Positions 44,009 through 61,650 of a stretch of DNA of 64,000 nt are shown in pieces. The position numbers were made by a program, and so were the translations under genes. Origin of the DNA: a virus; IMG/VR virus record IMGVR_UViG_3300001848_000349, positions 481 to 64,480 of that record. One strand, written 5' to 3'. Under the pieces are notes generated by a model. The model worked only from the letters and a program-made list of their open reading frames with translations. It did not search any database and had not been told where the DNA came from. Position 1 is the stretch's first letter. Each line of letters starts with the position of its first letter.

Positions 44009-47000
44009 TTATCCAGGTCCTGGATCTAATATATTATCTAATGGAAGATCAGCAATTTCAATGGATCTAATGTAATCTCCAGCTGAATGTGTCTGTGCTC
44101 CTGTATTTAAATATCCCCTGTCCTGAACAATAAATCTATCAGATTGTTTTGATGAGTAACGAACAATTTCTTTATTAATTAATAACAAACCACTAGATGG
44201 GAATCCAGTTGTACTGGTAACATATATTACTGTTAAAGAATTTGATAATGGAGCGTCCAAATATGTTCCAAATTCTTGTACAGAAGCAGGAACCAAATCA
44301 AAAATTTCTCCACCAGACATATAATGTGATAGTTTTCTATCAGCAAATTGTTCAATAGTTACATTAGGATAAGCAATTTCAAATTCTAATAAAGTCATTC
44401 CAGAAACATCAGAAGAACCGCTACCAGTAAATACATTGTTCTCATACAATCCTATATTAAATCCAGCATTTGTTAGACCATATCTTGTTAGAGTTTCTGA
44501 AGGTTTGTAATCAAATAATCCAACAACAGAATAACGATCAATTTCACGATTTACTGAAGCAATTGTAGTAGTTTGTAACTCTGGTCTAATTGTTGTTTTA
44601 ATGTCAATAGAGGCAGTAGGAGAAATAGATGTGGATGATTTTGTAACAATATCAGAAAGTAAAACATCAACAATACCAGTCGAAGCGTAACTTACTGTGG
44701 AAATTTTTTGTGCTGGCGTAACAATAGAAGAAATTTCTCTGTCTGATTTAATTTCTCCAAATGTAGCTCCAAATGATACAATTGATATAGCATTTGGTTG
44801 TTGTCCAGCAAGGAAAAATTGAATAGAAGTTGAAACTATAAGATTGGTAGAATCTATTTGAGGTGAAATTACAAAGCTGGTTACACTATCAATTTTTCTT
44901 TTGTTTGATTTAATTTTATTGTAACCCCTAGCAACTACAACCTTAGGTGGTTCGGTATATCCAGATCCACCCTCCACCAAAACAATATCTAAAATATCTC
45001 CACCATATGCTATGACTTCTGCTCTAGCACCGCCACCAAATTCTGTTTGAGGTACAAATTCAATTATAGGTGTAGTATAATATTGATAGGCAGTTGGTTG
45101 TAATAAAAGATTTTTTTCAAAGAAAAGTTCTAAATCTCTCTTATTCCAAATCAAATCAATAACAGATCCATTCTCGTCTATGACAGCATTAATACTTAAA
45201 CCTTCACCTCTTGTTATTTCATTGTAATTAGTTACTGTAATTTTTGAATACAAATCATTTGTTATAATTTGTTCATTAACGTAGTTCTTTTGTTTAACTA
45301 CATCAGGTACTGAAATAATTTCACGATAAGAATTTTCTCCATCAATTTGAATTAAATCGCCAGGACTTAAAGAAACAATGGATCTTTCTTTTCTGTAAGT
45401 TTCTATATCATCTCCTAATGAATAACCATATAACCATAGTGGTTGTCTTTTTCCTCTAACAAGAATTCTTTCCCCATCAGAATTTAAAGCATACTGTGAA
45501 CTAATAGTATATGTGCCAGATAATGTATATGAATTTTTATCATTGACTACAAATTTTAAAGCATTGTTATTAATCAAATTAAGATCATTTAATGGAGTTA
45601 AAATGGTAAATTTAATATTGTTTGAAACTTTATCTACTTTCTTAAGTTCACCTAATAAGTTATTATTCTGAAATACTTTTACATTTTGACTGTAGAATTC
45701 TGGAGAATGATTACTATACGATGCTGTTAAAGTATCAAAATTTTGTATTAGATTAGATCCAGATACAGTTAATGTTATTTTATTATAGAATGTATCTGGC
45801 TCATAATCATATGCTGTAATAGTTTTAGGTAAATCTCTACCATATAGTAAAATAATAGAAACATTTTGATGAACCTCAGATCCATCTGTGAAAACATATT
45901 TTTTAAGAGGAGCTGTAAATGTTATATTTGGTCCAACAATATCATAAGATTTTTTCTCTTGCTGTAAAACACCGTCAATAAAGACCAAAGCAAATGAAGC
46001 GTCATCTATTTTTCTTACTCTACCAGTAACTTCATCTTTAATTAAATAAGGACCATTTCCACGATATTCAATAGTTTTACTATCAATAGTTAATCTTTCA
46101 TAATTGCCAACACTAAATCCAAAGAATTTTTCTGGAAGATCATCAGTTGTTACTGGATTTATTGGAGGATTTTTAAATACAATTTTATCAGTCTCTTGAA
46201 TATCATCAGATCTTAAAATGTAATAAGAATTTCCATATGGTGTGAGAGAATCTTGTTTTGCTTTTTGTAATACACCATTCAAGAATATTAATAGATTTTC
46301 ATTTTCATCTGTTTTGACGATAGATCCATCTTTATAATATAATTCAAATATTCTATCAACCCCATTAAATTGATCACTAATATCTTGTAAAGATTTGAAG
46401 TATTTTGTATTCAAATCATTATTTTTAAATTTAATTATTCTTCCATAGAAATTTTGACTTTCTACTGTTTGTCCTTCTATAATTCTTTCGCCCAGTGGAG
46501 GTTGGGAGAAAGAAAGTTGAGTTCCAGAAACAACAAATGCTTTTCCTGGTTCTTGAATTATACCATCTAAAGATACAATTAAATTATCTACATCAGAAAC
46601 TGATAAAGGTAAATTAGTTTTTTTGTCATACATTGTAAAAACAGTATCACCTTCAGATTTTGTTGTATCTGTTTGATCGTCACCATTAAATGGTGTCAAT
46701 AATCCAAACTCTCTAGAGAATAATTCTGAAGAATCAAAAGTGTCTACCGATATAGACCCTAAACCTCTTTCTACCAATAAGCTATCAACTGATAATAAAG
46801 TATTAGTAATTTGCTGTTTTGTACTAACAACAGTTAATGAAATAGGTGGTAAACTGATACAACTATAAGATTCTACTATTCTTTGCTCCGTGGGCATTCT
46901 AGTAGAAGCTTCAGTTTCAATTAAAACTTCACCAAACAATTGGAATCCAGCTGGATGTGTTGTCTGTTTAATTAAATCTCTCCAAACATCGATTGGTGTT

Positions 47001-50000
47001 TTAGATTTAATTACATAAGAATAATCTTGATAGAAATAAGAATCTGTTAATTTTTGAGAATTGGCACTTAGTTGTCCTCTATCAGAAGCATAATATCCAA
47101 TATTATCATAAGAAGATTTTACTTGTGGAACAAATTCAGTATAAATTTTTGATTTAATAATTGCTGATGCTTTGCTTGATTGTCCTACTATAGGGTAACC
47201 AGATTCAAATATACCATTTATTCTGTATACTTTTAATAAATTAGTTCCAGGTCTCCATCCAGATGAAGATACAACAGCAGATGCTCCAGTGTATTCTTGT
47301 GTTACTATTTCACCATCTGTGAAATTTTTAGTAATTTGTTTTAATTCAAAAACAGTATTTGAAGTAAAGGATGATAATGTTGTTTTATCATTATTAAAAT
47401 TGACTCCGTTTTGTATAATTTTTACATTTTGTGGAACGCCAATATTATTTGATCCCAAATAGATTTTCAAATCTGTTTCAATAACTTTTAATGTTGGTGA
47501 ATATGTGTAACCATACCCAGCATTTACTACCTTAACATTTTTTATTTTTCCATCCAATAAAACTACGTCAAAGGTAGCACCATTTCCATCTCCATTCGTA
47601 ACAACAACTTTAGGTTGAGAATAAGACTCACCTTGAGTTACAACAGTTACTCCTTTTATTTGTTTCTTAATTGAATCATAAATTGCTTCAATTTTTGCTT
47701 CTTTAGATGAAGTTGGGACAACACCAACAACATTAGGAACTTTTTTGTAATCTGAACCAGTATCTAAAATTTTGATACTATTAATTTTACCAACAGCATA
47801 TTCTGATGAAGTTGTGTAAGTTATTTTTCCACTACCATCATATGCTGGTATAGAACTTAAAGAATAAACAAATTTATTATTTGTGGTGTAAATAATTCTC
47901 TTTTCGCCAGTCAAAGGATCATCTTTAATTTTTAAGAAAGAATCTTCGGTATTTACATTATTAGAAGCTTTAATAAAATAGAAGAAAGCACTATAGTTTA
48001 AAGGAATTTTATCTTCGTAGTTGTTTAGAGAAATATTTGCTCCAAAACCAAATTTAACACTTAAAAATGATCCAGGATTGCCTGGGCTTATATTGTTTAC
48101 ATATTTCTCTTCAGTGTAAATATTTTTATTAGCACTGGCAGAAAAATCTAGATATGTATCAACCATTGAATAATGGCTGGTATCAAATTTATATTTGTAG
48201 TATTTTTGTACATCTATAACAGGATTAGTTACAAATGAAATATTATCTCTCGAAAATTCTAATTGATATTCTGGATCTGTTACCGTTTTAATACTTACTA
48301 ATTTTGCTGGTGTACTATTATCATAAAATGTAGAACTCAATTGTAAAACAATTGGAGAATTTACACCATAAGAATAAGATACATTAATTTTTTTAATATC
48401 AGATTGATATGAAATATAATATGGTTTACTTACATCAGAACCAAAAGGTCTGTATCCATCAGTAAATCTATAATTTGCTTCATATAATGATACTTCTTTT
48501 CCATCATAATGATTTACTGCTGTAGTTCCTTCTTGTGATCTAATTACATCTACAGTTTTTTTATTGGTATCGACATTTGTTATTTTTACAATTTCGTTGC
48601 CTATTTTTAAATAGTCATCATTAGATAAATTTGATACATTAGATAGTTTTAATAATGTATTATTATATCCAAATCCAGCATGATCTACTTCTATTAATAT
48701 TCTTTGATTATTAATAGATCCAGGTGATCTATGTAAATTATCATCTGATATTGTAAGTCTATCGCCTTTTCTATAATTTTTTCCTTTATCAGTTATAATA
48801 ATATTTTGTACTCCACCAAAACCACCAGGAAAAATAACTACAGTTGCTTTAGCATTGTAAGCATCACCTGGAGCTCCTATATTGTTTCGTACCAAAGATT
48901 GATCTTGGAATACCAATTCAACATCAGTATAAGTGCCAGATTGATAATCTAAACCAGTATTTAAATATGTAAAATTACCAACACCAGTATCTGATATTGT
49001 GGACGAATGACTTACTTCATTTAAAATTGCTGATTGGTATAATCTTTTTCTAACATAGTATTCAGTTTCAGTTGTAGTATCATCTGGTGAAACATCAACT
49101 GTTACAATATCACCAACTGCTAATTGATGAGGTTCTGAAGTATTGATAATTGCTATATTGTCATTTAAATCAAAAATTTCTAAGTTTTCACTTAATGATA
49201 AAATGGTAAGTATTTTTGCTTTTGGAGTATCATCTAAATTACTACTCTTTAAAAAATAGTTGTCATCAATAATAAAATCTGTTGTTGAGGTCACTTTTAT
49301 TTTTAAAGAGTTTTGCCTTAAAGTACCTTCTAGTATTTCTCCAAAAGCAATATCAGAATCTTCTTTTCCTTTTCCATCAGTTAAAGTTACAATAGATCCT
49401 TTAGTAAATGAAGCATTTTTGTCTAAGATAACATTAATTACTTTTGTTTGAGAAAATAACCTATCAGTTAAATTGAATTTTTTTTCTGATAAAGTTACAG
49501 AAAATTCACAATTTCTTAATACAAATGTGTTAGTATTAAATACATTACCAATTAATGTTCCAGATGCCAAAATTTCTCCATCACTATTTCTTTGTTCAAT
49601 AGCATCCCCTTCAAACAAATAGGCATTACTAACTAAAGAAATTTGTACTGCTTTTGTTTGATTAGATTCTAATGATAATACTTCCTTTCCTTTTACTGTA
49701 GCAACAGCAGCTGTTACGCCTGCTCCTTCTGTTAAAGAATTATTAATAATCAAATCATTATTAACAGAAAAATTGGGAATTGAAGATTCAACAATACATG
49801 AGTTAATATTTCCAGATTTTACGTCTTGAATTAAGCAATAAACGTTGTCTCCATTTTTTTCAGAATATTCAGATCTTAAACGCTTGGCAGAAATAGGAAG
49901 ATCATCCTGAGAAATATTTGAATTATAATTGGAGTCTACAGGAAGTGAATAGAAATTTGCTCCAATAATATATGGGAATACTGGAGTATTTGAACTATCG

Positions 50001-52579
50001 ATAGTTAAGAAGTAAGCATATACTCCTTGTGGATAATCTGGAGTTACACAGAATCTTCCATTATTTTGATCTAACTCTGTCTTTCCAGAATTTATACTTG
50101 GAACCCAAACATAATCATCTATAAAAGATCCAGCTGGATAATCACCAATAGAAGGTCCATTTTCTCTAGAAGAATTTAATTGATAACCGCTAGCAAGTCT
50201 AATTATTGAAGAATTTGAATCTAAAGGATTTGAATGCCCATAAGGTCCGTAAATTGGATTACCATCATAAGCATATCCTAAAATAGGAGAATGTGTTAAT
50301 GTATTAGTTTCACTAAACCCAGCAGTTATATTGTCGTTAATTTTATATCTTAAAAGTTTTGGATTAGCAATCACTCCATATCCATAATTTTTTGTTGGAT
50401 TGTAATTGATGAAAGGAAAAGCATTATTAATGTCTAATGTATCAGAAATTTTTGTGTATCTATTTTTTACCCATTTTTTAATAGAGGCCGTTGCTTGAGC
50501 ACCAAAACCCACTGCTTCTACTGTAACTTTAGTAGTTTCTCTCGTATAAAATCTTCCGTAATTAATTGATTTACAAGATTCTATTTTACCCTCTGGTGAA
50601 AGTACTGCTTCATACTCAGCAAAACTTCCTTTTCCTAAGTCATCAGTAATTTTGATGATTGGTGGTGATGAATAGTATTCACCTGGATCATCAACTCTAA
50701 TGCTAGTAATCTTTCCGTTAGTAACTATAGCTGTTAATTTTGCTCCTCTTCCAGAAGTTATTGTGATTTCTGGATCTTCTGTAAAATTTTCATCAGTATC
50801 AATAAGAATAGAATCTACAGTTTCTCCTGATAAAACAGATCTTGCTTTATTAGGAGTATTATTAACTAAAACAAAAGGAGCAGATTTGTAACCATTTCCT
50901 TTATAAGTTACTTTACTTTCTACAATTTTTCCATATTTTACATATTCTTCATCTTTATATCCAACAGCTAAAGTTCCATCTACAAAAATGCCCACATCTC
51001 TTGTTGAAGTTTTATATACTTCTGTTGTAATTGTTGGGCGTTTTCTAATTAATCTTAAGATTTTTTGATCTTCTAAGATAATGCTGCTATCAATGTCATT
51101 ATTAAAAATACTAGTATATGAAGGGAAACTAGATGAACAAACATAATAATATTGATCATCTTCATAAACAGCAGAAACATCAGAAATAAACTTATTAACT
51201 TTAGAGTTTATTTGCGGAGAAAGAGCAGTTGCTCTAGAAGAACTGTCATTAATTTGCCAACGAATTGATTCGCTAAATTTATCAAAAATAATAGGATCTC
51301 TTGTGGAAAAACCAGAATCAGAAATTTCTATAGTATCGTTGGTACTAGCATAAGGACTTGGGTTAGTTGGAATTAGATTGTAGACAACTCCAACAGTAAT
51401 TAACTTTACTATGCCAGTGTCATATGTTCCTTGCAAAGTTGAGTAATTATATACTGTTTGACCAACTCCATGTGTTTGGGGATTGATTCTAGTATCAATA
51501 ATAAATTGATTTACATTTTTCTGTGTAAATGTGATAACCTCATTGCCAATTAATAATTTTCCTTGCTTACCCCAACCTAAAGTTGAATATACATCAACTC
51601 TATCGCCAGTAGATTCTGTAACTGATAAATTATTTTTTAATGTAGTTCTTGAATAAACATTGAATTTGCCATTCACAGATGATGGTTGTAACACTAATTC
51701 GTAAATGTCATCCCCTTCAAAGTTACCAGAATATAAAACATTGTCAACAACAGCAGAAGCATAACCAATAGATTTATCATAATCGTCTAAATTTTGTACA
51801 ATTAAATTCCCTACTAATTTTTGAATGTCGCCAGATACAACTTTCACTTTTAAAGCATATGCCGTAGTCCAATCAGAAGTAGAAGACTTTAATGTAAAGT
51901 CTTTTGGATTGTAAACACTTACCTGTTCATTATTGTCTTTTGAGACAATAGAGTTAAAAATAAATTTTATAGACTTCTCAGTTCCTTTTGATTTATAAAA
52001 TTTACCTATATTCTTGATTAAAGTTCTTTTATCTACATTTGTCTTTAAATATTGCTCAGGAAAAGCACCTAAGTACTGTGATTCAAAACTTTTTACTAAA
52101 GCATAAAGAAATAGATTACTGATGTTAGTAACAACATCTCCTTGATAATGTGGAGCTGCTTGAGTTGTTATAAACTCAGATTCCTTGTATAGATTTCCTA
52201 AAGTAGTATTTCCACTTACTCCTCTAGAAACATATAAAAATTGAGTGTCGGTCTTTTCTTTGTAGAAGCAGATTTCATCACCTATTTGAATATAACCGTT
52301 TTTATCTGGAAATGAATCTGTTGATGCTACACTAATAGAAGTGACGTTCGCTAAAATACTTGCCGATAACGTAGTTGTTTGTTGTAATAAATCGTTTTCA
52401 TATGTATTGATATCACGATATTTTGTGATATTATTAATAATATCTAGAGGCTGACCTTTTATTTCTAACTGCTCGTAGTATTTCTCTACAAACTTAGAAA
52501 ATTCTGTATAATCACTTGTTATGAATGAAGGTAGTTGAGACTCTACAAGAGTCGAAATTGTTTTTGTCTTAGCAGCCAT
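44009..52579 (-). CDS. gp7: Baseplate wedge initiator gp7-like protein, expanded (2856 aa), with a YHYH-like domain
   Basis: SQLPSFI...FVEKYYE, KNIGKFYKSKGTEKSIKFIF, SYFYQDYSYVIKS and HPAGFQLFGE motifs; HSPILGYAYDGNPIYGPYG...GRFCVTPDYP.G.YAYF; lies between gp6 and gp8. Confidence 0.85.
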   Translation of the reverse strand: MAAKTKTISTLVESQLPSFITSDYTEFSKFVEKYYEQLEIKGQPLDIINNITKYRDINTYENDLLQQTTTLSASILANVTSISVASTDSFPDKNGYIQIGDEICFYKEKTDTQFLYVSRGVSGNTTLGNLYKESEFITTQAAPHYQGDVVTNISNLFLYALVKSFESQYLGAFPEQYLKTNVDKRTLIKNIGKFYKSKGTEKSIKFIFNSIVSKDNNEQVSVYNPKDFTLKSSTSDWTTAYALKVKVVSGDIQKLVGNLIVQNLDDYDKSIGYASAVVDNVLYSGNFEGDDIYELVLQPSSVNGKFNVYSRTTLKNNLSVTESTGDRVDVYSTLGWGKQGKLLIGNEVITFTQKNVNQFIIDTRINPQTHGVGQTVYNYSTLQGTYDTGIVKLITVGVVYNLIPTNPSPYASTNDTIEISDSGFSTRDPIIFDKFSESIRWQINDSSSRATALSPQINSKVNKFISDVSAVYEDDQYYYVCSSSFPSYTSIFNNDIDSSIILEDQKILRLIRKRPTITTEVYKTSTRDVGIFVDGTLAVGYKDEEYVKYGKIVESKVTYKGNGYKSAPFVLVNNTPNKARSVLSGETVDSILIDTDENFTEDPEITITSGRGAKLTAIVTNGKITSIRVDDPGEYYSSPPIIKITDDLGKGSFAEYEAVLSPEGKIESCKSINYGRFYTRETTKVTVEAVGFGAQATASIKKWVKNRYTKISDTLDINNAFPFINYNPTKNYGYGVIANPKLLRYKINDNITAGFSETNTLTHSPILGYAYDGNPIYGPYGHSNPLDSNSSIIRLASGYQLNSSRENGPSIGDYPAGSFIDDYVWVPSINSGKTELDQNNGRFCVTPDYPQGVYAYFLTIDSSNTPVFPYIIGANFYSLPVDSNYNSNISQDDLPISAKRLRSEYSEKNGDNVYCLIQDVKSGNINSCIVESSIPNFSVNNDLIINNSLTEGAGVTAAVATVKGKEVLSLESNQTKAVQISLVSNAYLFEGDAIEQRNSDGEILASGTLIGNVFNTNTFVLRNCEFSVTLSEKKFNLTDRLFSQTKVINVILDKNASFTKGSIVTLTDGKGKEDSDIAFGEILEGTLRQNSLKIKVTSTTDFIIDDNYFLKSSNLDDTPKAKILTILSLSENLEIFDLNDNIAIINTSEPHQLAVGDIVTVDVSPDDTTTETEYYVRKRLYQSAILNEVSHSSTISDTGVGNFTYLNTGLDYQSGTYTDVELVFQDQSLVRNNIGAPGDAYNAKATVVIFPGGFGGVQNIIITDKGKNYRKGDRLTISDDNLHRSPGSINNQRILIEVDHAGFGYNNTLLKLSNVSNLSNDDYLKIGNEIVKITNVDTNKKTVDVIRSQEGTTAVNHYDGKEVSLYEANYRFTDGYRPFGSDVSKPYYISYQSDIKKINVSYSYGVNSPIVLQLSSTFYDNSTPAKLVSIKTVTDPEYQLEFSRDNISFVTNPVIDVQKYYKYKFDTSHYSMVDTYLDFSASANKNIYTEEKYVNNISPGNPGSFLSVKFGFGANISLNNYEDKIPLNYSAFFYFIKASNNVNTEDSFLKIKDDPLTGEKRIIYTTNNKFVYSLSSIPAYDGSGKITYTTSSEYAVGKINSIKILDTGSDYKKVPNVVGVVPTSSKEAKIEAIYDSIKKQIKGVTVVTQGESYSQPKVVVTNGDGNGATFDVVLLDGKIKNVKVVNAGYGYTYSPTLKVIETDLKIYLGSNNIGVPQNVKIIQNGVNFNNDKTTLSSFTSNTVFELKQITKNFTDGEIVTQEYTGASAVVSSSGWRPGTNLLKVYRINGIFESGYPIVGQSSKASAIIKSKIYTEFVPQVKSSYDNIGYYASDRGQLSANSQKLTDSYFYQDYSYVIKSKTPIDVWRDLIKQTTHPAGFQLFGEVLIETEASTRMPTEQRIVESYSCISLPPISLTVVSTKQQITNTLLSVDSLLVERGLGSISVDTFDSSELFSREFGLLTPFNGDDQTDTTKSEGDTVFTMYDKKTNLPLSVSDVDNLIVSLDGIIQEPGKAFVVSGTQLSFSQPPLGERIIEGQTVESQNFYGRIIKFKNNDLNTKYFKSLQDISDQFNGVDRIFELYYKDGSIVKTDENENLLIFLNGVLQKAKQDSLTPYGNSYYILRSDDIQETDKIVFKNPPINPVTTDDLPEKFFGFSVGNYERLTIDSKTIEYRGNGPYLIKDEVTGRVRKIDDASFALVFIDGVLQQEKKSYDIVGPNITFTAPLKKYVFTDGSEVHQNVSIILLYGRDLPKTITAYDYEPDTFYNKITLTVSGSNLIQNFDTLTASYSNHSPEFYSQNVKVFQNNNLLGELKKVDKVSNNIKFTILTPLNDLNLINNNALKFVVNDKNSYTLSGTYTISSQYALNSDGERILVRGKRQPLWLYGYSLGDDIETYRKERSIVSLSPGDLIQIDGENSYREIISVPDVVKQKNYVNEQIITNDLYSKITVTNYNEITRGEGLSINAVIDENGSVIDLIWNKRDLELFFEKNLLLQPTAYQYYTTPIIEFVPQTEFGGGARAEVIAYGGDILDIVLVEGGSGYTEPPKVVVARGYNKIKSNKRKIDSVTSFVISPQIDSTNLIVSTSIQFFLAGQQPNAISIVSFGATFGEIKSDREISSIVTPAQKISTVSYASTGIVDVLLSDIVTKSSTSISPTASIDIKTTIRPELQTTTIASVNREIDRYSVVGLFDYKPSETLTRYGLTNAGFNIGLYENNVFTGSGSSDVSGMTLLEFEIAYPNVTIEQFADRKLSHYMSGGEIFDLVPASVQEFGTYLDAPLSNSLTVIYVTSTTGFPSSGLLLINKEIVRYSSKQSDRFIVQDRGYLNTGAQTHSAGDYIRSIEIADLPLDNILDPGPG

Positions 52580-52584
52580 CTATC

Positions 52585-54384
52585 TTATTCTGAATAAGTA
52601 GTGAATTTACTTTGGGCAATATCTACGTCGATATATGCTTCTCTTAAAACATTGATATCTCCATGCTTTGGTCTAACTCTCAATTCAATTCTGTTATCAT
52701 CAAATGATCCTTTAATGATCGTTAAATTATACATCATAACTTCACCTTTCATATAATCAACCTTACCCAAGGCGTCATTCAATACAACCTTTGTGCCAGT
52801 TAATGAATCTAATCTATATAGGACCAGAACTCCATTACGATCTTCAACATAGCAAGTATAATTAGGATATTCGCTTACAACAAACCCAGTTGATTGAACA
52901 ACAGGTCCTTCACAATCATCAGCAAATTCATTTTGATAACATATCTCATAATAGAAAGTGGAATTCAATGTTGGATAGAAATCTTTTCTCAATACAATAT
53001 GAGTATCATTAGAATTAATTGATTGATCAGCATTATCGATCGTACCGATAATTTTACTTAATCTAAATTTACCATTGAATTTTTCAACATCAGATTGAGC
53101 AAGATATTTTTCTACAGATTGAATGATTTTCTTTTTAATCTCTGGAGTAGATAATGTCGTTCTTGATCGACTAAAAGAAACACTACTAATAATTTCAATA
53201 TACAATATAGATGGGTCTACAATTTCTGGTACAACAGATCCAACCATATATGATTTTAATTTATTGACAATCTCTCTTTTTGTAACAGCAGATAAAGAAG
53301 AAGTATTCTTTGGTTTAATAACAATCTTAACTTTACCATATTCTGGTGGTACTTCATTCTCTCCACCATATGTAATGATGTCAGAAATTGCTGGATAGAT
53401 ATTTCTTACAATAGCAGCGTAGTCTTGTGCTGTTACAGCTCGATCTTGTGTACCAAAATATTTTGGAGCATTAAATTTGATTTTATCAATGCTTTCGATG
53501 TCCTCACCACCATTAGCAGCTGATGTAGTAGTAAGACTAGCAATTGTGAAAGGATAATTTGTTGTACCATTGATATCCTGTAAAACACCAGCAAAAGTAA
53601 ATTGCTTGGCACCATTGGTAGCAGAAGCATTTGTAATCAAATATGTGATCTCAATATAACTACCATTTTCTAATTTCTTGCCAATAACACCATCACCAAA
53701 GAAAATTTCATAATTCTCATCTTCAATCTCTTCTACAAAAAAGACATTTGAGTTTGAGTTAACAGAAAGAATATTATTTGAATATTCAAACGTTTTAAAT
53801 GCTGTAGATGTAATACTATCAAAAACTCTTACTCTAATTGACGAAACATCCAATCCTACGTTTTGAATAACAAATCTTTGACTTTTTAATGAAGTATTGA
53901 CTGTATAATAGTTTTTAACAATCGTACCTTCATAAATTGGTAAATTTGTAAATGTAGCTATACCATTAACTACTGATGTTGTAATATCATCCACTACAAC
54001 ATATTCATACAGATCACTATCAAATACGGTTGTAAATCCTGTTCCTTTCTTTAACGTAATTGTATTTGGATATGTTCCCGTAAAATTAACCTGACAAGTT
54101 ACATTTGCCTTCGGAGCAACTGCTGACTTTGGTGTGTATCCTAATTGCTTGGCAATCGCTACTACATTATCTCTTAGCGTAGCAGAATCAAGAAATAACT
54201 CATTCACCACCATGTTGGTGTTGAATGCTGTGTAATACGTATTATATGCTAATACATCCAGTAATGTGCTCCATACAGAACCTTCAAAGTCATAACTAGT
54301 AAAGTCCGACTGTGACTTTAAATAATCCTTTAAAGCTGTTTTAATTTGATTAAAATCTAAATTAGAAACCTGAACGTATGGCAT
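52585..54384 (-). CDS. gp6: Baseplate wedge protein gp6
   Basis: LDFNQIK..LK.YL...FT.YDFEGS, ELFLDSATLRDNVV, QDRAVTAQDY motifs. Confidence 0.95.
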   Translation of the reverse strand: MPYVQVSNLDFNQIKTALKDYLKSQSDFTSYDFEGSVWSTLLDVLAYNTYYTAFNTNMVVNELFLDSATLRDNVVAIAKQLGYTPKSAVAPKANVTCQVNFTGTYPNTITLKKGTGFTTVFDSDLYEYVVVDDITTSVVNGIATFTNLPIYEGTIVKNYYTVNTSLKSQRFVIQNVGLDVSSIRVRVFDSITSTAFKTFEYSNNILSVNSNSNVFFVEEIEDENYEIFFGDGVIGKKLENGSYIEITYLITNASATNGAKQFTFAGVLQDINGTTNYPFTIASLTTTSAANGGEDIESIDKIKFNAPKYFGTQDRAVTAQDYAAIVRNIYPAISDIITYGGENEVPPEYGKVKIVIKPKNTSSLSAVTKREIVNKLKSYMVGSVVPEIVDPSILYIEIISSVSFSRSRTTLSTPEIKKKIIQSVEKYLAQSDVEKFNGKFRLSKIIGTIDNADQSINSNDTHIVLRKDFYPTLNSTFYYEICYQNEFADDCEGPVVQSTGFVVSEYPNYTCYVEDRNGVLVLYRLDSLTGTKVVLNDALGKVDYMKGEVMMYNLTIIKGSFDDNRIELRVRPKHGDINVLREAYIDVDIAQSKFTTYSE

Positions 54385-55842: not shown

Positions 55843-56029
55843 TTGTTACATTCTCCTTTTTAATGAGTCCTTCATCGTAGATGCTTTCTACATCGACTTG
55901 AGGGGCTTTCAACCCCTGGTAATATTCATTGGCAATAGACTCCATGGAATCGGCAAATTCGTTGAAGTTATCAAAGAATTGCTCTCTTAGCGTTCCATCG
56001 GAAGTTTTAAAAGTAACTTTCTGTTTCAT
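55787..56029 (-). CDS. Hypothetical protein (80 aa), first gene of the late block
   Basis: ORF track; ATAAATA upstream. Confidence 0.65.
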   Translation of the reverse strand: MKQKVTFKTSDGTLREQFFDNFNEFADSMESIANEYYQGLKAPQVDVESIYDEGLIKKENVTNVEPRNGGTPEFLNEIGQ

Positions 56030-56087
56030 GGCGACTTTTTGAGAAATTTTTTATGGCGAAAATTTTTTGGATTAGGGATCCTATCGT

Positions 56088-56094
56088 TATTTAT
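56088..56094 (-). promoter_or_regulatory. Late promoter ATAAATA at the early/late boundary
   Basis: tatttat at 56088-56094. Confidence 0.6.
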
Positions 56095-56166
56095 TTCGGT
56101 CGCTTGGATACTTTTGTAGGTTAGAGAGGGTCAAATATGGGACCCGCTCGGCGCGCCGCCCTTAAG

Positions 56167-56192
56167 GGGGGCAACGGCGAACCACTGCCCCC
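56167..56192 (-). terminator. 11-bp GC-rich hairpin with a UUCG loop closing the early cassette array
   Basis: GGGGGCAGTGG-TTCG-CCGTTGCCCCC; only a weak U-tract follows. Confidence 0.65.
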
Positions 56193-56209
56193 TGGCGGAT
56201 GTGCTAGGA

Positions 56210-56410
56210 TCAACCGTTGCCCATCACGACAGCGTAGGCGGAGGGCGAAGCGATTGCCTCACGATCTCGCCACTGCTGACTGCCACGCTTAGTCTTGAAC
56301 CCTACCCGCTGGCAGATCAACTCACCCTTACGGGGGCGACGGGGGCGAACCGTCTTGAATGAGAACCCAGCGGCGGCGAGTTGGGCAGGGGTGGCGGTGG
56401 CGAAGTTCAT
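56210..56410 (-). CDS. Small basic early protein (66 aa)
   Basis: MNFATATPAQLAAAGFSFKTVRPRRPRKGELICQ...; the ATG at 56410 avoids overlap with the 53-aa gene. Confidence 0.65.
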   Translation of the reverse strand: MNFATATPAQLAAAGFSFKTVRPRRPRKGELICQRVGFKTKRGSQQWRDREAIASPSAYAVVMGNG

Positions 56411-56453
56411 CTGGTCTGTGTGTGTAGGGGTAGTGTAGCAGATGGGGGGCAGA

Positions 56454-56615
56454 TCACCAACGCTGGCGATCGTAGCGGGCGTCGCCCCATCCATCACGTT
56501 CCCAGCGGCGGGCGTCGTAGTCGTCGGCGGTCATCAGGTCGTCGTGCTCGGCGTCTTCATAGAATCGATCGGACTTGCCGAAGGACTCACCGTAAGCGAA
56601 GGACGTGGTTGCCAT
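56454..56615 (-). CDS. Small early protein (53 aa), not in the ORF track
   Basis: MATTSFAYGESFGKSDRFYEDAEHDDLMTADDYDARRWERDGWGDARYDRQRW; directly after a repeat promoter. Confidence 0.7.
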   Translation of the reverse strand: MATTSFAYGESFGKSDRFYEDAEHDDLMTADDYDARRWERDGWGDARYDRQRW

Positions 56616-56655
56616 GGTTGGTTGGTTTCGTTTGAACTGAGGTTAGTCTACAGGG

Positions 56656-56829
56656 TCAGGGCATCTGGCAACTGCCAGGGAGGACACTATTGTAGGTGGC
56701 ACAGCGGGCAGCGGTCTGCTGGTTGACATGCTGTACGGTCTCGGATGCGAACCCGATCGCTGCCGATCCTACAGCAGCGATGGGGGCATAGAAGGCGGCG
56801 CCGAGAATGAGAAGGGCGAGGGTCTTCAT
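56656..56829 (-). CDS. Small early protein with an N-terminal hydrophobic helix (57 aa), not in the ORF track
   Basis: MKTLALLILGAAFYAPIAAVGSAAIGFASETVQHVNQQTAARCATYNSVLPGSCQMP. Confidence 0.7.
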   Translation of the reverse strand: MKTLALLILGAAFYAPIAAVGSAAIGFASETVQHVNQQTAARCATYNSVLPGSCQMP

Positions 56830-56873
56830 GGGGTCGTTTGAACTGAGGTTAGTCTACAGGGTGGGGTGAGCGA

Positions 56874-57032
56874 TCAACGCTCGAACTGTGCCAGACTGCT
56901 AGGTGCCACATGGGCGGGAGAACCACAGGAGAGGTAGAAGGCGACCATGCGTTCTGCCTCGTCAAGGGTCTTGAACCACTGGGAGTGCCAGTCGTTGCTG
57001 TAGGGGCGTTGGTAGCGAACTTCGATTCTCAT
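56874..57032 (-). CDS. Small early protein (52 aa), not in the ORF track
   Basis: MRIEVRYQRPYSNDWHSQWFKTLDEAERMVAFYLSCGSPAHVAPSSLAQFER. Confidence 0.75.
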   Translation of the reverse strand: MRIEVRYQRPYSNDWHSQWFKTLDEAERMVAFYLSCGSPAHVAPSSLAQFER

Positions 57033-57077
57033 GGGGTTGGTTGGTTGATGCTGTTAGTCTACAGGGTCAGGATGGGG

Positions 57078-57302
57078 TCAGCGTGCCAGCAGGTGACGGT
57101 TAGCGAATTGTCCCAGGGAGGCACCTGGCATCATCAGGCGGAGCATGTCACGACGGCGGCAATCATGGGCGCTGATGCTGCCGCTGTGCCATTGTACGAT
57201 AGCACGACGGGTCAAGGGCGACAGGATGATCCGTTGGCAAGCGGTGCTGCCACGTTCAACGTTGATGAACACGGGCAGGCGATCGATGGCGAAGTTGATC
57301 AT
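57078..57302 (-). CDS. Small early protein (74 aa)
   Basis: ORF track; ATG directly after a repeat leader. Confidence 0.7.
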   Translation of the reverse strand: MINFAIDRLPVFINVERGSTACQRIILSPLTRRAIVQWHSGSISAHDCRRRDMLRLMMPGASLGQFANRHLLAR

Positions 57303-57382
57303 GGTTGGGTTTGAACTGAGGTTAGTCTACAGGGTCAGGATGGGAGGAAGGGGGGCAGCGTGTGCCACCCCCTCAACTGGCA

Positions 57383-57808
57383 TCAGCAGTCTCGAAAGAT
57401 TGCCACCTCACGGTAGGACTTCTCACAAGCGGTGAAATCGTAGCGGAGGGTGCTATCGTAGGTTGCTTGCCAATCTACAACCAAAGCGACGGGCACATCG
57501 TACAGATCGCTGTAGAATTGCTCAGCGAAGTCTGCCTCGGATTCGTACCAACCAACGAAGCGATCATCACACCCTTCGATGTTATCAATGCCATCCTCAG
57601 CAGCGAGGGCATCAACAGCATCGTATCCGATCACTTCACCACAACGAACGTACTCTTCGTAGTTATCAACGAACATACGCTCGTTGTAGTTATCGATGAA
57701 CTCCAGAATGTCATCGATAGCGTAGTTGTCATCGATCAACTCTTCGATTTTCTCAACAGTGCTAGCGGCGAGCACTTCTTTGTAGTTAGCGGTCAAGGTG
57801 ACGGTCAT
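57383..57808 (-). CDS. ardA: ArdA-like anti-restriction (DNA-mimic) protein (141 aa)
   Basis: 35 D/E versus 9 K/R; C-terminal DRFVGWYESEADFAEQFY..LYDVP..LVVDWQATY..L.YDF matches my recollection of the ArdA Y.G.Y.SEEDFA.E...IP..L..YIDWE pattern; own TTGACT-17-TATTGT promoter. Confidence 0.7.
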   Translation of the reverse strand: MTVTLTANYKEVLAASTVEKIEELIDDNYAIDDILEFIDNYNERMFVDNYEEYVRCGEVIGYDAVDALAAEDGIDNIEGCDDRFVGWYESEADFAEQFYSDLYDVPVALVVDWQATYDSTLRYDFTACEKSYREVAIFRDC

Positions 57809-57829
57809 TGGTTTGTTTGAACTGAAGGA

Positions 57830-57858
57830 ACAATAGAACGGATGGAGGGGAGAGTCAA
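57830..57858 (-). promoter_or_regulatory. Sigma70-type promoter TTGACT-17-TATTGT for the ardA-like gene
   Basis: agtcaa at 57853-57858 and acaata at 57830-57835. Confidence 0.75.
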
Positions 57859-57883
57859 GGGGGTGGGGACACCCCCTCAGGTG

Positions 57884-58045
57884 TCACATGCCGTTGGTGT
57901 ACTCCCCGATGATCATGCCATTCTGGCGGACCTGAGCGTATCCGAACTCTTCGGACAGGTCCAGGCACAGATCCCATGCCCGATCCTCATCACAGGTGGT
58001 GTTCTCCCAGGGAGCGGAGGGGCAGATCACGTCGTAGCGGTTCAT
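57884..58045 (-). CDS. Small acidic early protein (53 aa)
   Basis: MNRYDVICPSAPWENTTCDEDRAWDLCLDLSEEFGYAQVRQNGMIIGEYTNGM; ATG lies downstream of the promoter at 58071-58128. Confidence 0.7.
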   Translation of the reverse strand: MNRYDVICPSAPWENTTCDEDRAWDLCLDLSEEFGYAQVRQNGMIIGEYTNGM

Positions 58046-58218
58046 TCGTTGTTTGGTTGACTGTCCCCATAGTATGGCAGCAGATCGGGGGCAATGGTCG
58101 GTTTGGTGGGCACTGTGAGAAGTGGCACAGCCCCCATAGCAAAGCGCCCCCAAGGCGACTAACCTAGAGGGCGGGAGGGGAGGGAAGGGGCAGCGACGCG
58201 GCCGCCCAGTTTGTATAA

Positions 58219-58401
58219 CTAACTCAACAGATCGGGATAGTAAGATTCAACCTCAGAAATCAGTTCCTCATCAGTATAGCTGGTGAGATTTTCTTCCATC
58301 TGGTCACCAACAATACGGAGCAGATCTTTGGTGCTCATGTTATCAAGCAAACGGTCGATGTATGCTTCAACGAGTGCTTGACGATCGAAAGTGTTGTTCA
58401 T
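58219..58401 (-). CDS. Small acidic hypothetical protein (60 aa)
   Basis: ORF track. Confidence 0.7.
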   Translation of the reverse strand: MNNTFDRQALVEAYIDRLLDNMSTKDLLRIVGDQMEENLTSYTDEELISEVESYYPDLLS

Positions 58402-58409
58402 GGTTTGTA

Positions 58410-58577
58410 TCAGTTGGAGGGGAAGTTACGGCAGACAGCATCACACAGGACACGAACTAAGTCATCGAATTGTTCCTGTGAGTTGGGGAAATGTTCACAA
58501 AAGAACTCATCACAGATGGCATCAATGTCCTCCATCAGTTGTTCCCTGGCAGTCAACATCTCAAGTTTGGTGTTCAT
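58410..58577 (-). CDS. Small acidic hypothetical protein (55 aa), not in the ORF track
   Basis: MNTKLEMLTAREQLMEDIDAICDEFFCEHFPNSQEQFDDLVRVLCDAVCRNFPSN; ATGA-coupled to the upstream gene. Confidence 0.7.
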   Translation of the reverse strand: MNTKLEMLTAREQLMEDIDAICDEFFCEHFPNSQEQFDDLVRVLCDAVCRNFPSN

Positions 58578-58702
58578 TTCCGAAGGGGAGAATTGTAGTA
58601 GCGAGTGAAAGCAGTTACAATGATAATGGCGGTTGAGATAACACCAACCAAACCAAGAAAGGTAACAGCGTCACCAGTGAAAGTGTAAGTGTCAGGTGTC
58701 AT
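58574..58702 (-). CDS. Single-pass membrane peptide (42 aa), not in the ORF track
   Basis: MTPDTYTFTGDAVTFLGLVGVISTAIIIVTAFTRYYNSPLRK; ATGA overlaps at both ends. Confidence 0.7.
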   Translation of the reverse strand: MTPDTYTFTGDAVTFLGLVGVISTAIIIVTAFTRYYNSPLRK

Positions 58703-58836
58703 TTTTTGTTTTGGTTACGATAACGATAAGAGGCAGAAGGATCAGGGTCATACATACCCCCACCCATCCGATCTTCAAGATAAAACATGATGCCAAAGGT
58801 GGAGAGAATCACTCCCCCAAGAATAGCAGTGATCAT
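58699..58836 (-). CDS. Small membrane-anchored peptide (45 aa), not in the ORF track
   Basis: MITAILGGVILSTFGIMFYLEDRMGGGMYDPDPSASYRYRNQNKK; ATGA overlaps. Confidence 0.6.
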   Translation of the reverse strand: MITAILGGVILSTFGIMFYLEDRMGGGMYDPDPSASYRYRNQNKK

Positions 58837-58949
58837 TGATCTTCCTCAGGTTGGTTGAGTTCCATGTCGTGCCAGCATTCTGCTAACGGATGCCCCCAAT
58901 CTTCGATGTCAAAGATCTCACCAGGCATGTCTTGAATCTCTTCCCACAT
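58833..58949 (-). CDS. Small acidic peptide (38 aa), not in the ORF track
   Basis: MWEEIQDMPGEIFDIEDWGHPLAECWHDMELNQPEEDQ; first gene after the promoter at 58975-59032. Confidence 0.65.
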   Translation of the reverse strand: MWEEIQDMPGEIFDIEDWGHPLAECWHDMELNQPEEDQ

Positions 58950-59039
58950 AATGTGTTTTTGTGTTGACTCTGTTAGTATGGCAGCAACAGGTGCCCAGTG
59001 GTTGAAATAGTGGACACCTGTTGAACTGGCACACTGATA

Positions 59040-59363: not shown

Positions 59364-59408
59364 AGTTTGTAAAAAGTAAAGATTAACAAATAATATTTAA
59401 TTTTTAGT

Positions 59409-59484
59409 TTTTAAGATTTTGATAAATCTTAAAATATAAGAAAATCCCACTTTGTTGAAATTTGTATATTCAACAAAAGTGGGA
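59409..59484 (-). terminator. Two adjacent stem-loops; the larger one is terminator-like
   Basis: TCCCACTTTGTTGAA/TTCAACAAAAGTGGGA (59445-59484) followed by TTTT on the minus strand; 11-bp TTTTAAGATTT/AAATCTTAAAA (59409-59434). Confidence 0.65.
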
Positions 59485-60182: not shown

Positions 60183-60347
60183 TCAGTAGTCGATATACGT
60201 ATCATCCTGGTCCTTAAACTTTGCTTGACGTTTACTACGTGCTGAGTAACGTTTAGCATTTTGTACTTCATAACCATAATCTTCATAATCATCTTCAAAG
60301 TTCACTTCTTTGAAGGATTCGGTATACTTTTTGTTGATTTTAGACAT
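60183..60347 (-). CDS. Small charged hypothetical protein (54 aa), not in the ORF track
   Basis: MSKINKKYTESFKEVNFEDDYEDYGYEVQNAKRYSARSKRQAKFKDQDDTYIDY. Confidence 0.65.
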   Translation of the reverse strand: MSKINKKYTESFKEVNFEDDYEDYGYEVQNAKRYSARSKRQAKFKDQDDTYIDY

Positions 60348-60379
60348 TTTTGAAAGAAATCAGTAACAATTGTGAAGAA

Positions 60380-60643
60380 TTATTGAACATTCGTATTTAT
60401 TTGTTGAATATTCTCACTTTTAATTGAAGAAGTGATGAATTTACCAACACTTTCACTGTTTTTGATAGTATTTTGAAGGTTTTCTTCGAAATTCTTATCA
60501 ATTATAGTGTAATTATATTCTTTATCACTAGAATTGAAGACTACAGTACAAATGTCTTCAGTAATACTCACTGATTTAATAGCTGTACTATTTAAATCTT
60601 GATATACTACAGTTTGAGATTCTTTGACAATCATTGAAATCAT
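60380..60643 (-). CDS. KTSC-like domain protein (87 aa)
   Basis: NSTAIKSVS...TVVFNS...YNY...SESVGKFI resembles the KTSC SSAI.SVGY...L.V.F...Y.Y...S.G.Y/F pattern. Confidence 0.5.
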   Translation of the reverse strand: MISMIVKESQTVVYQDLNSTAIKSVSITEDICTVVFNSSDKEYNYTIIDKNFEENLQNTIKNSESVGKFITSSIKSENIQQINTNVQ

Positions 60644-60787
60644 TAAAATTTAAAAATTGAGTTTTTTGAATTTCTTAAAAAACTTAAAAAGTGAGTTTTT
60701 TAAGATTTTGAGATTCTGTGGAAAACTATTTTTCCACAAGTCTTGAAAACCTGTGGAAAACTCGAAATCCCTCAACCTCATGAACAT

Positions 60788-60816
60788 AGTATAGGGCATT
60801 TGGAGGGGTCTGTCAA
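60788..60816 (-). promoter_or_regulatory. Consensus sigma70 promoter TTGACA-17-TATACT (leftward)
   Basis: tgtcaa at 60811-60816 and agtata at 60788-60793. Confidence 0.85.
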
Positions 60817-60864
60817 GTGCCTGAGAGGTCCTCTGTGCCACTTTGAGAGGTGTCACAATACCCC

Positions 60865-60893
60865 TTGACATTCGTTCGCTGACGTGCTAAGAC
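60865..60893 (+). promoter_or_regulatory. Rightward promoter TTGACA-17-(TGC)TAAGAC firing into non-coding DNA
   Basis: -35 at 60865-60870, extended -10 at 60885-60893; operator palindrome ends 31 nt before the -10. Confidence 0.65.
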
Positions 60894-61026
60894 AACGACT
60901 CCTCCGTACATTAAGAGACATTACCGTACAATACATCACACTACCTATATTTTTTAACCTATTTTTAATTATAGAGTTTTCCACAGGTTTTTCCACAGGT
61001 AGTTCCGTATCCTGTGGAAAACTATA

Positions 61027-61650
61027 TTATTTCCATCTAGGACCTATAATCCAACCTACGAGAGATTTACGTTGACCTGATTTAATTTTAGTAACTCTAT
61101 GTTTAGTTCTTGAGTCAAAGATAATAAGAGAACCAAGATCTAGGTTAGCAGTTGTCAATTGATCATTTGGTGGAAGAAGTTGTAGATGTCCACCTGTGTA
61201 AGTATTAGGATCAGATAATTGTAAGGAGAAGGATAATTTTCTTGTATATTCTGCTTTAGGAGTAATATAGTCTGATAGGTTAGTTTCTCTCCAAGCAGGA
61301 TATTTTTTATTAGCATAAAGTTCTGTTAGTCCAGAGTCTGTATGCCAACCATAATGATCACCTTGATTGTAGACAGTATATTGCATTTGTCCACCATCTA
61401 GGTTATTGATATCATACTTAAAATTAAGATCATTAGCGAGTCTGATGTAGTAATCAACAAAAGCTGCTATCCAATTTTCTTGTTGAATCCATGCTACTTG
61501 AGTTGAGCGTCTATCTTGTTCAATTGATGGTTGACTACGAAGAATACTAGCAGGTTTGAGGTATGCATCATATTGTTCAAGATGTTGTATCATAATGTTA
61601 ACAACATCTTGAGGTAAATGAGTTTGAATGATGACGTTATTTTCTGCCAT
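61027..61650 (-). CDS. 2OG-Fe(II) oxygenase (prolyl-4-hydroxylase-like, cyanophage type)
   Basis: Y..GDHYGWHTD (HxD), RKLSFSLQL, GG.L.L, HRVTKI..G.RKSLVGW. Confidence 0.9.
   Translation of the reverse strand: MAENNVIIQTHLPQDVVNIMIQHLEQYDAYLKPASILRSQPSIEQDRRSTQVAWIQQENWIAAFVDYYIRLANDLNFKYDINNLDGGQMQYTVYNQGDHYGWHTDSGLTELYANKKYPAWRETNLSDYITPKAEYTRKLSFSLQLSDPNTYTGGHLQLLPPNDQLTTANLDLGSLIIFDSRTKHRVTKIKSGQRKSLVGWIIGPRWK

Follow-up and report, generated by a model that had tools for sequence, protein, structure and literature searches.

A conserved promoter-like element and an origin-like, gene-free module in T4-like cyanophages

The rightward promoter-like element at positions 60865-60896 of a cyanophage contig is real and, as comparison with related phages confirms, is part of a module of T4-like cyanophages that contains no gene and usually occurs once per genome. 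The module is best read as origin-like, with early transcription that would run into an unwinding element next to sites for the host DnaA; we give this reading a probability of about 0.4. Its anatomy, its conservation, its non-coding nature and its lack of an RNA fold are observed directly.

The window, the 64-kb stretch of DNA that was analyzed, is part of a 71.5-kb source contig and was found in aquatic and freshwater metagenomes. Its Pfam matches include the T4 gp25, gp6 and gp8 baseplate proteins, a Gp96 protein of the Kyanoviridae and a 2OG-Fe(II) oxygenase, and blastn of the window gave matches to Synechococcus and Prochlorococcus myoviruses only, which identifies it by sequence as a freshwater T4-like cyanomyovirus. 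Four giant open reading frames, all on the minus strand (1298-21925, 22541-33808, 34017-42098 and 44009-52579; 6875, 3755, 2693 and 2856 aa), adjoin the gp6, gp8 and gp25-like baseplate genes and presumably encode giant baseplate or fibre proteins. The region 56000-59000 is a GC-rich island (0.48-0.57 vs ~0.30 around it) full of very small leftward early genes, each with a palindrome-type promoter and a near-identical -10 and leader (TAGACTAACCTCAGTTCAAAC). The contig's least stable 60-100-bp duplex, at 59370-59450, is an AT-rich spacer among early genes, 1.4 kb to the left of the module. The module and its flanks contain the following features.

60380-60643, minus strand: first early gene, 87 aa, behind the leftward promoter; kept in S-PM2 and S-RIM32
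60645-60712, unstranded: AT-rich repeated leader of AAAACTCA / GAGTTTTTT units, separating DnaA cluster 1 from the first early gene
60717-60760: DnaA cluster 1, TTTTCCACA at 60717-25 (minus), 60730-38 (plus) and 60752-60 (minus), in the leader of the leftward transcript
60788-60816, minus strand: leftward early promoter TTGACA-17-TATACT (TTGACA 60816, TATACT 60788)
60835-60856, unstranded: perfect palindrome GTGCCAC-N8-GTGTCAC (general form GTGNCAC-N8-GTGNCAC), the early-promoter element common to both divergent promoters
60865-60896, plus strand: conserved block, a rightward promoter-like element with TTGACA at 60865-70, a 17-nt spacer and TAAGAC at 60888-93
60885-60886, plus strand: TG of a TGn extension (TGc before TAAGAC), read from the sequence
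60886-96, plus strand: motif GCTAAGACAAC inside the conserved block
60897-60945, plus strand: variable stretch of ~10-11-nt repeats (GTACATT 60906, AGACATT 60916, GTACAAT 60926, ATACATC 60933)
60946-60975, unstranded: AT tract starting with TATATTTTTTAA, 49 nt after the block, a candidate unwinding element
60977-61021: DnaA cluster 2, TTTTCCACA at 60977-85 (plus), 60989-97 (plus) and 61013-21 (minus)
61027-61650, minus strand: convergent 2OG-Fe(II) oxygenase gene, 207 aa, its stop codon 6 nt past the third DnaA box

When the sequence was re-read, the palindrome, TTGACA, the 17-nt spacer, TAAGAC, the TG and the boxes were all found where an earlier note on this DNA had placed them. The palindrome pattern has 10 matches in the window, against 1.2 expected. 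Its end lies 31 nt from the rightward TAAGAC, and the earlier claim that this is the spacing of the leftward early promoters was borne out (30-32 nt in the seven palindrome-linked ones that were aligned). A palindrome 30-32 nt upstream of the -10 is seen in the window, in S-PM2, in S-RIM32 and in G003, a 200-kb cyanophage genome. The palindrome had been assigned to the rightward promoter alone, given its distance of 41 nt from the leftward -10. That distance is correct, but the assignment does not extend to the relatives, since in the complete genomes of S-PM2, S-RIM32 and G003 one palindrome is situated 30-31 nt from both divergent -10 positions. In these three phages the rightward element and the leftward promoter thus appear to form a symmetric bidirectional early promoter around a single palindrome. 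The centre bases of the palindrome vary among relatives without covariation, so that it fits a protein site; an RNA stem was ruled out, because the changes are uncompensated.

Doron et al. (ISME J, 2016) reportedly described an early-gene regulatory element of T4-like cyanophages together with a start-site map of Syn9. The palindrome resembles that element in being conserved, upstream of early genes and at a fixed distance from the -10, here as GTGNCAC-N8-GTGNCAC at 30-32 nt. It differs in that a gene-free module with an atypical -10 lies in front of the palindrome studied here and may be driven by it.

The description of the rightward element as a full early-class promoter was overstated, because TAAGAC lacks the final T of the other early -10s of this phage (TAGACT, CATACT, TATTGT and TATACT) and the promoter consensus scanner run on the window did not list it. 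The hexamer is TAAGAC or TAAGCC and not of the TAnnnT type; its last base (TAAGMC) is a conserved C in all variants seen. Judged from its sequence, a C at this position would be unfavourable for sigma-70, and it sets the element apart from the other early promoters. The sole conserved purine past the hexamer is 4 nt downstream, nearer than the usual start site. On the other side, TTGAC is exactly 17 nt from the hexamer and the palindrome is at the class-typical 31 nt.

Viral contigs were searched with the block pattern TTGAC-N13-CGTGCTAAGNCAAC; the 32-nt block can also be written TTGAC-N13-CGTGCTAAGMCAAC. The pattern matched 63 viral contigs, about 60 of which are cyanophage loci, and it is also present in S-PM2 and S-RIM32. 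Two of the 63 (L006 and L062) are unrelated high-GC chance matches. A palindrome precedes the block by 8-9 nt in nearly all block loci; it is not clear in four AT-rich divergent ones (L025, L030, L045 and L059). In all of the ~60 loci the genes downstream of the block are on the opposite strand, 50-250 nt away, so the block serves no gene anywhere. At all loci examined the module is flanked by convergent or co-directional gene blocks.

One copy of the module is present in S-PM2, S-RIM32, the window contig and Syn9, where the block copy at ~52.67 kb is degenerate. G003 contains two complete modules ~105 kb apart. The second of these (L081 5950-6180, corresponding to G003 ~105,950-106,180) has the palindrome, the block, CTAGACATT repeats, the AT tract and four to five tandem DnaA boxes, and it faces a 214-aa ORF on the opposite strand. 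In Syn9, the small ORFs gp86 and gp87 are annotated over the degenerate module on the opposite strand (L099 978-1298, corresponding to Syn9 52477-52797); their coding status is doubtful. The S-PM2 record AJ630128 has tRNA-Leu and tRNA-Asn annotated over the module (L001 3182-3338, corresponding to S-PM2 19177-19333) and further tRNAs inside the oxygenase gene. A tRNA reading of the module was rejected: ARAGORN gives no tRNA in the S-PM2 locus or in the window, and these annotations are therefore probably spurious. Most lineages (e.g. L004, L023, L052 and L038) carry an extra motif, AACCCTTG..AT.ACTGRCGCGGA, at the far end of the module, ~+100 to +160 past the block. This motif is split by a small CACT-NNNN-AGTG hairpin in S-PM2-like phages, partially overlaps the stop of the next gene and is absent from the window.

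The DNA faced by the rightward element was claimed to be non-coding, and this was verified. There is no ATG from 60900 to the oxygenase stop at 61027, and the region is non-coding in every relative examined. The only plus-strand ORF (60884-61075, GTG start) begins upstream of any plausible start site, as had been pointed out. It was rejected as a coding sequence: its 63 codons start upstream of the -10, overlap the oxygenase gene and have no consistent counterpart in relatives. Moreover, the repeat number shifts in 11-nt steps, so any reading frame would break.

The putative RNA does not behave as a structured RNA. The consensus fold of the 14 aligned box-bearing modules, taken from the presumed start, has an RNAalifold energy of -0.12 kcal/mol and 0 covarying pairs; in this alignment, the AT tract and the pair of tandem boxes make up the invariant columns. 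Rfam gave no match, either at the gathering threshold or at E<=1. In the window RNA, pairing of box 1 with the inverted box 3 could give a 13-bp hairpin that is followed by a U-rich run and resembles a terminator (MFE -24.5 kcal/mol, z=-3.2). This hairpin is absent where the three boxes are direct repeats (L028, L036, L056 and L065), and a terminator was for that reason ruled out as a conserved feature. There is thus no covarying fold, no described family and no conserved intrinsic terminator, and a structured regulatory ncRNA is disfavoured. What is conserved in the module is, on these alignments, a set of DNA sites. The predicted rightward RNA, if made, most likely acts in cis.

Metatranscriptomes over 60300-61500 comprised four runs, represented by assembled contigs only, which carry no strand, start or level information; no plus-strand start near 60900 emerged from them. 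Missing cover was for this reason not counted as evidence. The interval 60897-60943 is uncovered in three runs and spanned in full by one, which may include DNA; two runs show a contig break between ~60670 and 60944-60981. In run X14, a contig covers 58285-60896 from the leftward early genes and then passes into Illumina adapter at the last base of GCTAAGACAAC. The end at 60896 marks a defined molecule end in this single contig; a minus-strand RNA with its 5' end there is an easier reading than a plus-strand RNA that starts there. The S-PM2d RNA-seq papers do not mention the module locus.

Between the block and the AT tract the modules share a phased arrangement of short repeats. In 30 non-redundant modules the repeat autocorrelation peaks at lag 11 (z=14), with lag 22 at z=11.7. 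The distance from block to AT tract among relatives is 19, 29, 41, 49-53, 59, 63 or 72 nt; these distances are phase-coherent, in steps of approximately one helical turn (Rayleigh p ~0.008 at period 10.5-11). The repeats of the window are weak, consisting of ~4-5 RKACAWY copies of which GTACATT, AGACATT and GTACAAT are at 10-nt spacing, and TRF reported no tandem repeat in the 60897-60945 stretch.

The AT tract is conserved in sequence among the aligned relatives, beyond its composition. By duplex stability, the window tract falls in the bottom 0.04% of the contig's 30-bp windows, and the S-PM2 tract ranks among the lowest 3-4 of all 30-40-bp stretches in the 196-kb genome. The AT tracts of S-RIM32 and Syn9 are of ordinary stability within their genomes. 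The least stable 100-bp windows at the equivalent of the leftward leader have genome ranks of 1, 3 and 4 in G003, 1 and 5 in S-RIM32, and 7 in S-PM2. As the earlier note described, the path from the rightward element crosses the AT tract and three DnaA boxes toward the 3' end of the oxygenase gene.

The sequence TTTTCCACA is the cyanobacterial DnaA box (PMC5987646). It occurs seven times exactly in the window vs 1.2 times expected, a number reached in 0 of 100 shuffles. Six of the seven boxes are within 305 bp (60717-60760 and 60977-61021), arranged three and three around the divergent promoters, so that in the window six perfect host-consensus boxes are clustered beside an AT-rich element, as in an oriC. 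The tandem box pair of cluster 2 is identical in 14 of 14 aligned relatives. In S-PM2 the DnaA-box cluster at the module is the only one of the genome. Within 300 nt either side in 49 non-redundant modules, at least two exact boxes are present in 20 (~40%; two to five boxes), and box density is 2.07 per kb in the modules vs 0.044 per kb elsewhere in the same loci, a 47-fold difference. In several relatives the boxes are on the leftward side only. No exact box is found within the same distance in 27 of the 49 (~55%). The boxes are therefore not shared by all homologous elements, and DnaA is not essential to the module in general. Nor are they specific to it: when tandem DnaA boxes were tried as an anchor for finding the module, most matches were unrelated phages. 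Box-free modules (e.g. L004, L016 and L032) have three copies of TGRTTCTCAA, which contain TTATTGA and are oriented plus, minus, plus, at the position of the boxes. Their placement suggests a swap of the bound protein.

Several known origins share parts of this anatomy. T4 oriF and oriG consist of a promoter and an A+T-rich DUE, and they form a priming R-loop (PMC3016281). The earlier note had invoked this precedent, and the anatomy does fit it: the promoter-like element leads directly into an A+T-rich candidate unwinding element of low duplex stability (60946-60975). Both have a phage promoter with an A+T-rich stretch within tens of bases in a unit of ~100-150 bp without a gene of its own, and the module is found in T4-like cyanophages, which encode the gp59 helicase loader. 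The differences are that the cyanophage promoter is of the early, palindrome type and not MotA-dependent, that the AT tract keeps its sequence among relatives, in contrast to the replaceable DUE of T4, and that the module additionally has phased 11-nt repeats and boxes for host DnaA. T4 oriE requires an early promoter and contains 12-nt repeats at even spacing (PMC3016281). An early-type promoter followed by evenly spaced short direct repeats is likewise seen across the modules, although weakly in the window, and both are kept in syntenic regions of relatives (PMC3016281). In contrast to oriE, the cyanophage period is 11 nt and the repeats are in the presumed transcribed stretch, between promoter and AT tract; a non-systematic look identified no repEA/repEB-like gene beside the module.

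In lambda, DnaA boxes lie downstream of pO/oop, and the activity of this promoter influences origin firing (PMC3985674). The module resembles this part of ori-lambda in having DnaA boxes downstream of a promoter and a short convergent non-coding transcript, which is predicted here. It has neither O/P-type initiator genes nor lambda-type iterons, and unlike oop the predicted RNA has no conserved terminator or fold. With bacterial oriC and iteron-plasmid origins the module shares perfect tandem host-type DnaA boxes that adjoin an AT tract, with further repeats nearby. Unlike those origins it has two to five boxes only, no adjacent initiator gene was identified, and such boxes are missing from over half of the homologous modules.

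These observations can be explained in other ways. The module may be a control region and not an origin, an explanation we consider rather unlikely. The palindrome would be a symmetric activator site, which for that reason makes promoters on both sides, and DnaA would act as a roadblock or modulator. Bound past both promoters (cluster 1 at ~+20 to +65 leftward, cluster 2 at ~+77 to +121 rightward), DnaA would tie early transcription to the replication state of the host. The rightward transcript would be a short by-product, or would insulate the early genes from read-through out of the oxygenase operon. The equal distance of the palindrome from both -10s in three complete genomes agrees with this, as does the constant position of the module between convergent or co-directional gene blocks. 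So do the boxes, which in the window are on the transcribed side of both promoters and in some relatives are confined to the leftward side. DnaA is a known transcription factor. A precedent for its boxes downstream of a promoter is lambda pO (PMC3985674). A control region leaves unexplained why the AT tract is conserved, why the repeats are phased at 11 nt and why the rightward arm is strictly kept although it has no gene ahead of it. A small early RNA that acts as RNA is less probable still. Like lambda oop, such an RNA could pair in antisense with the 3' end of the convergent mRNA, or it could titrate a protein through its repeated CA-rich 11-nt units; short repeated motifs in variable copy number are typical of sponge RNAs. 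A promoter geometry that in all relatives points at a non-coding target, the terminator-like hairpin with its U-rich run in the window, and the lambda example of a short convergent RNA with boxes downstream would suit such an RNA. Against it count the missing secondary structure and covariation, the lack of an Rfam match at E<=1, the loss of the hairpin in the four loci with three direct boxes, and the fact that RNA length and content past the repeats are swapped between lineages.

It is equally improbable, in our estimate, that the block is not a promoter and that no rightward RNA is made. In this case GCTAAGMCAAC would be a protein site, namely the first and best-kept of the repeats, and the nearby TTGAC would be part of this site or of the leftward control region. 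The case for it includes one lineage (L133, L177, L171 and L178), in which GCTAAGACAAC or GCTTAGATCAC is found 4 nt past a canonical TTGACA-17-TAGCCT or TACGCT promoter. The motif there is situated at ~+1 to +11 and not at the -10, and it is still conserved; the motif is hence conserved in its own right. It may thus be a DNA or protein site, or a first repeat, that overlaps a promoter, and not, or not only, a -10. The conserved C at the end of the hexamer, the motif-like repeats (CTAAGACATT, CTAGACATT) that follow in L021 and in the second G003 module, and the X14 contig, which arrives from the left and stops at the last base of the motif, point the same way. However, TTGAC at 17 nt together with the palindrome at 31 nt would then be an odd coincidence, and in the commonest lineage the repeats (CACAGTATCTT type) are unlike the motif.

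The origin-like reading can be put as a sequence of events. The two divergent promoters would make up one bidirectional early promoter that shares a single palindromic site for its factor, the rightward element being one of the arms. The module would most likely function as a replication origin, or else as a control region linked to replication. Soon after infection, RNA polymerase would begin transcription immediately beyond the CAAC of the block and cross the phased 11-nt repeats into the easily melted AT tract that adjoins the host DnaA sites. The resulting RNA, short, non-coding and without structure, would work in cis, either as an R-loop primer or through transcriptional activation of unwinding. 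DnaA would assist in opening the AT tract, or would stop the transcription complex and keep it in place. What is inferred here is that the promoter is active, that DnaA binds, that the tract unwinds and that the module has a role in replication. Against the reading, the initial transcribed region is poor in G when read from the sequence, a composition that disfavours stable R-loops. Cumulative, detrended GC skew showed no consistent inflection at the module in S-PM2, S-RIM32, Syn9 and G003, and the skew rises monotonically, probably because gene orientation is mostly uniform. Of the earlier interpretation, the early-promoter geometry, the non-coding target and the origin-like anatomy are supported; a consensus -10 is not, and a structured ncRNA is disfavoured.

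In the literature searched, the only origin cited is one theta origin predicted for Syn9 from GC skew (PMC2984593). That literature contains no experimental definition of the start of replication in a T4-like cyanophage and no paper that connects cyanophages with DnaA boxes; a mapped transcript of Syn9 may already be known. A more far-reaching proposal, which we put forward tentatively and regard as somewhat doubtful, is that Kyanoviridae start replication at a defined, usually single-copy origin that is fired by a bidirectional early promoter and depends on host DnaA in many lineages, other lineages having exchanged the DnaA boxes for the sites of a different initiator. If true, this would be the first defined origin of the Kyanoviridae, an abundant virus family, and the first T4-type origin to use host DnaA. 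The conserved module of ~300 bp, with its early promoter, phased repeats, unwinding tract and DnaA sites, offers a precise experimental target. If it acts as an origin or senses DnaA, it would couple the infection cycle of major viruses of oceans and lakes to the replication state of their hosts.
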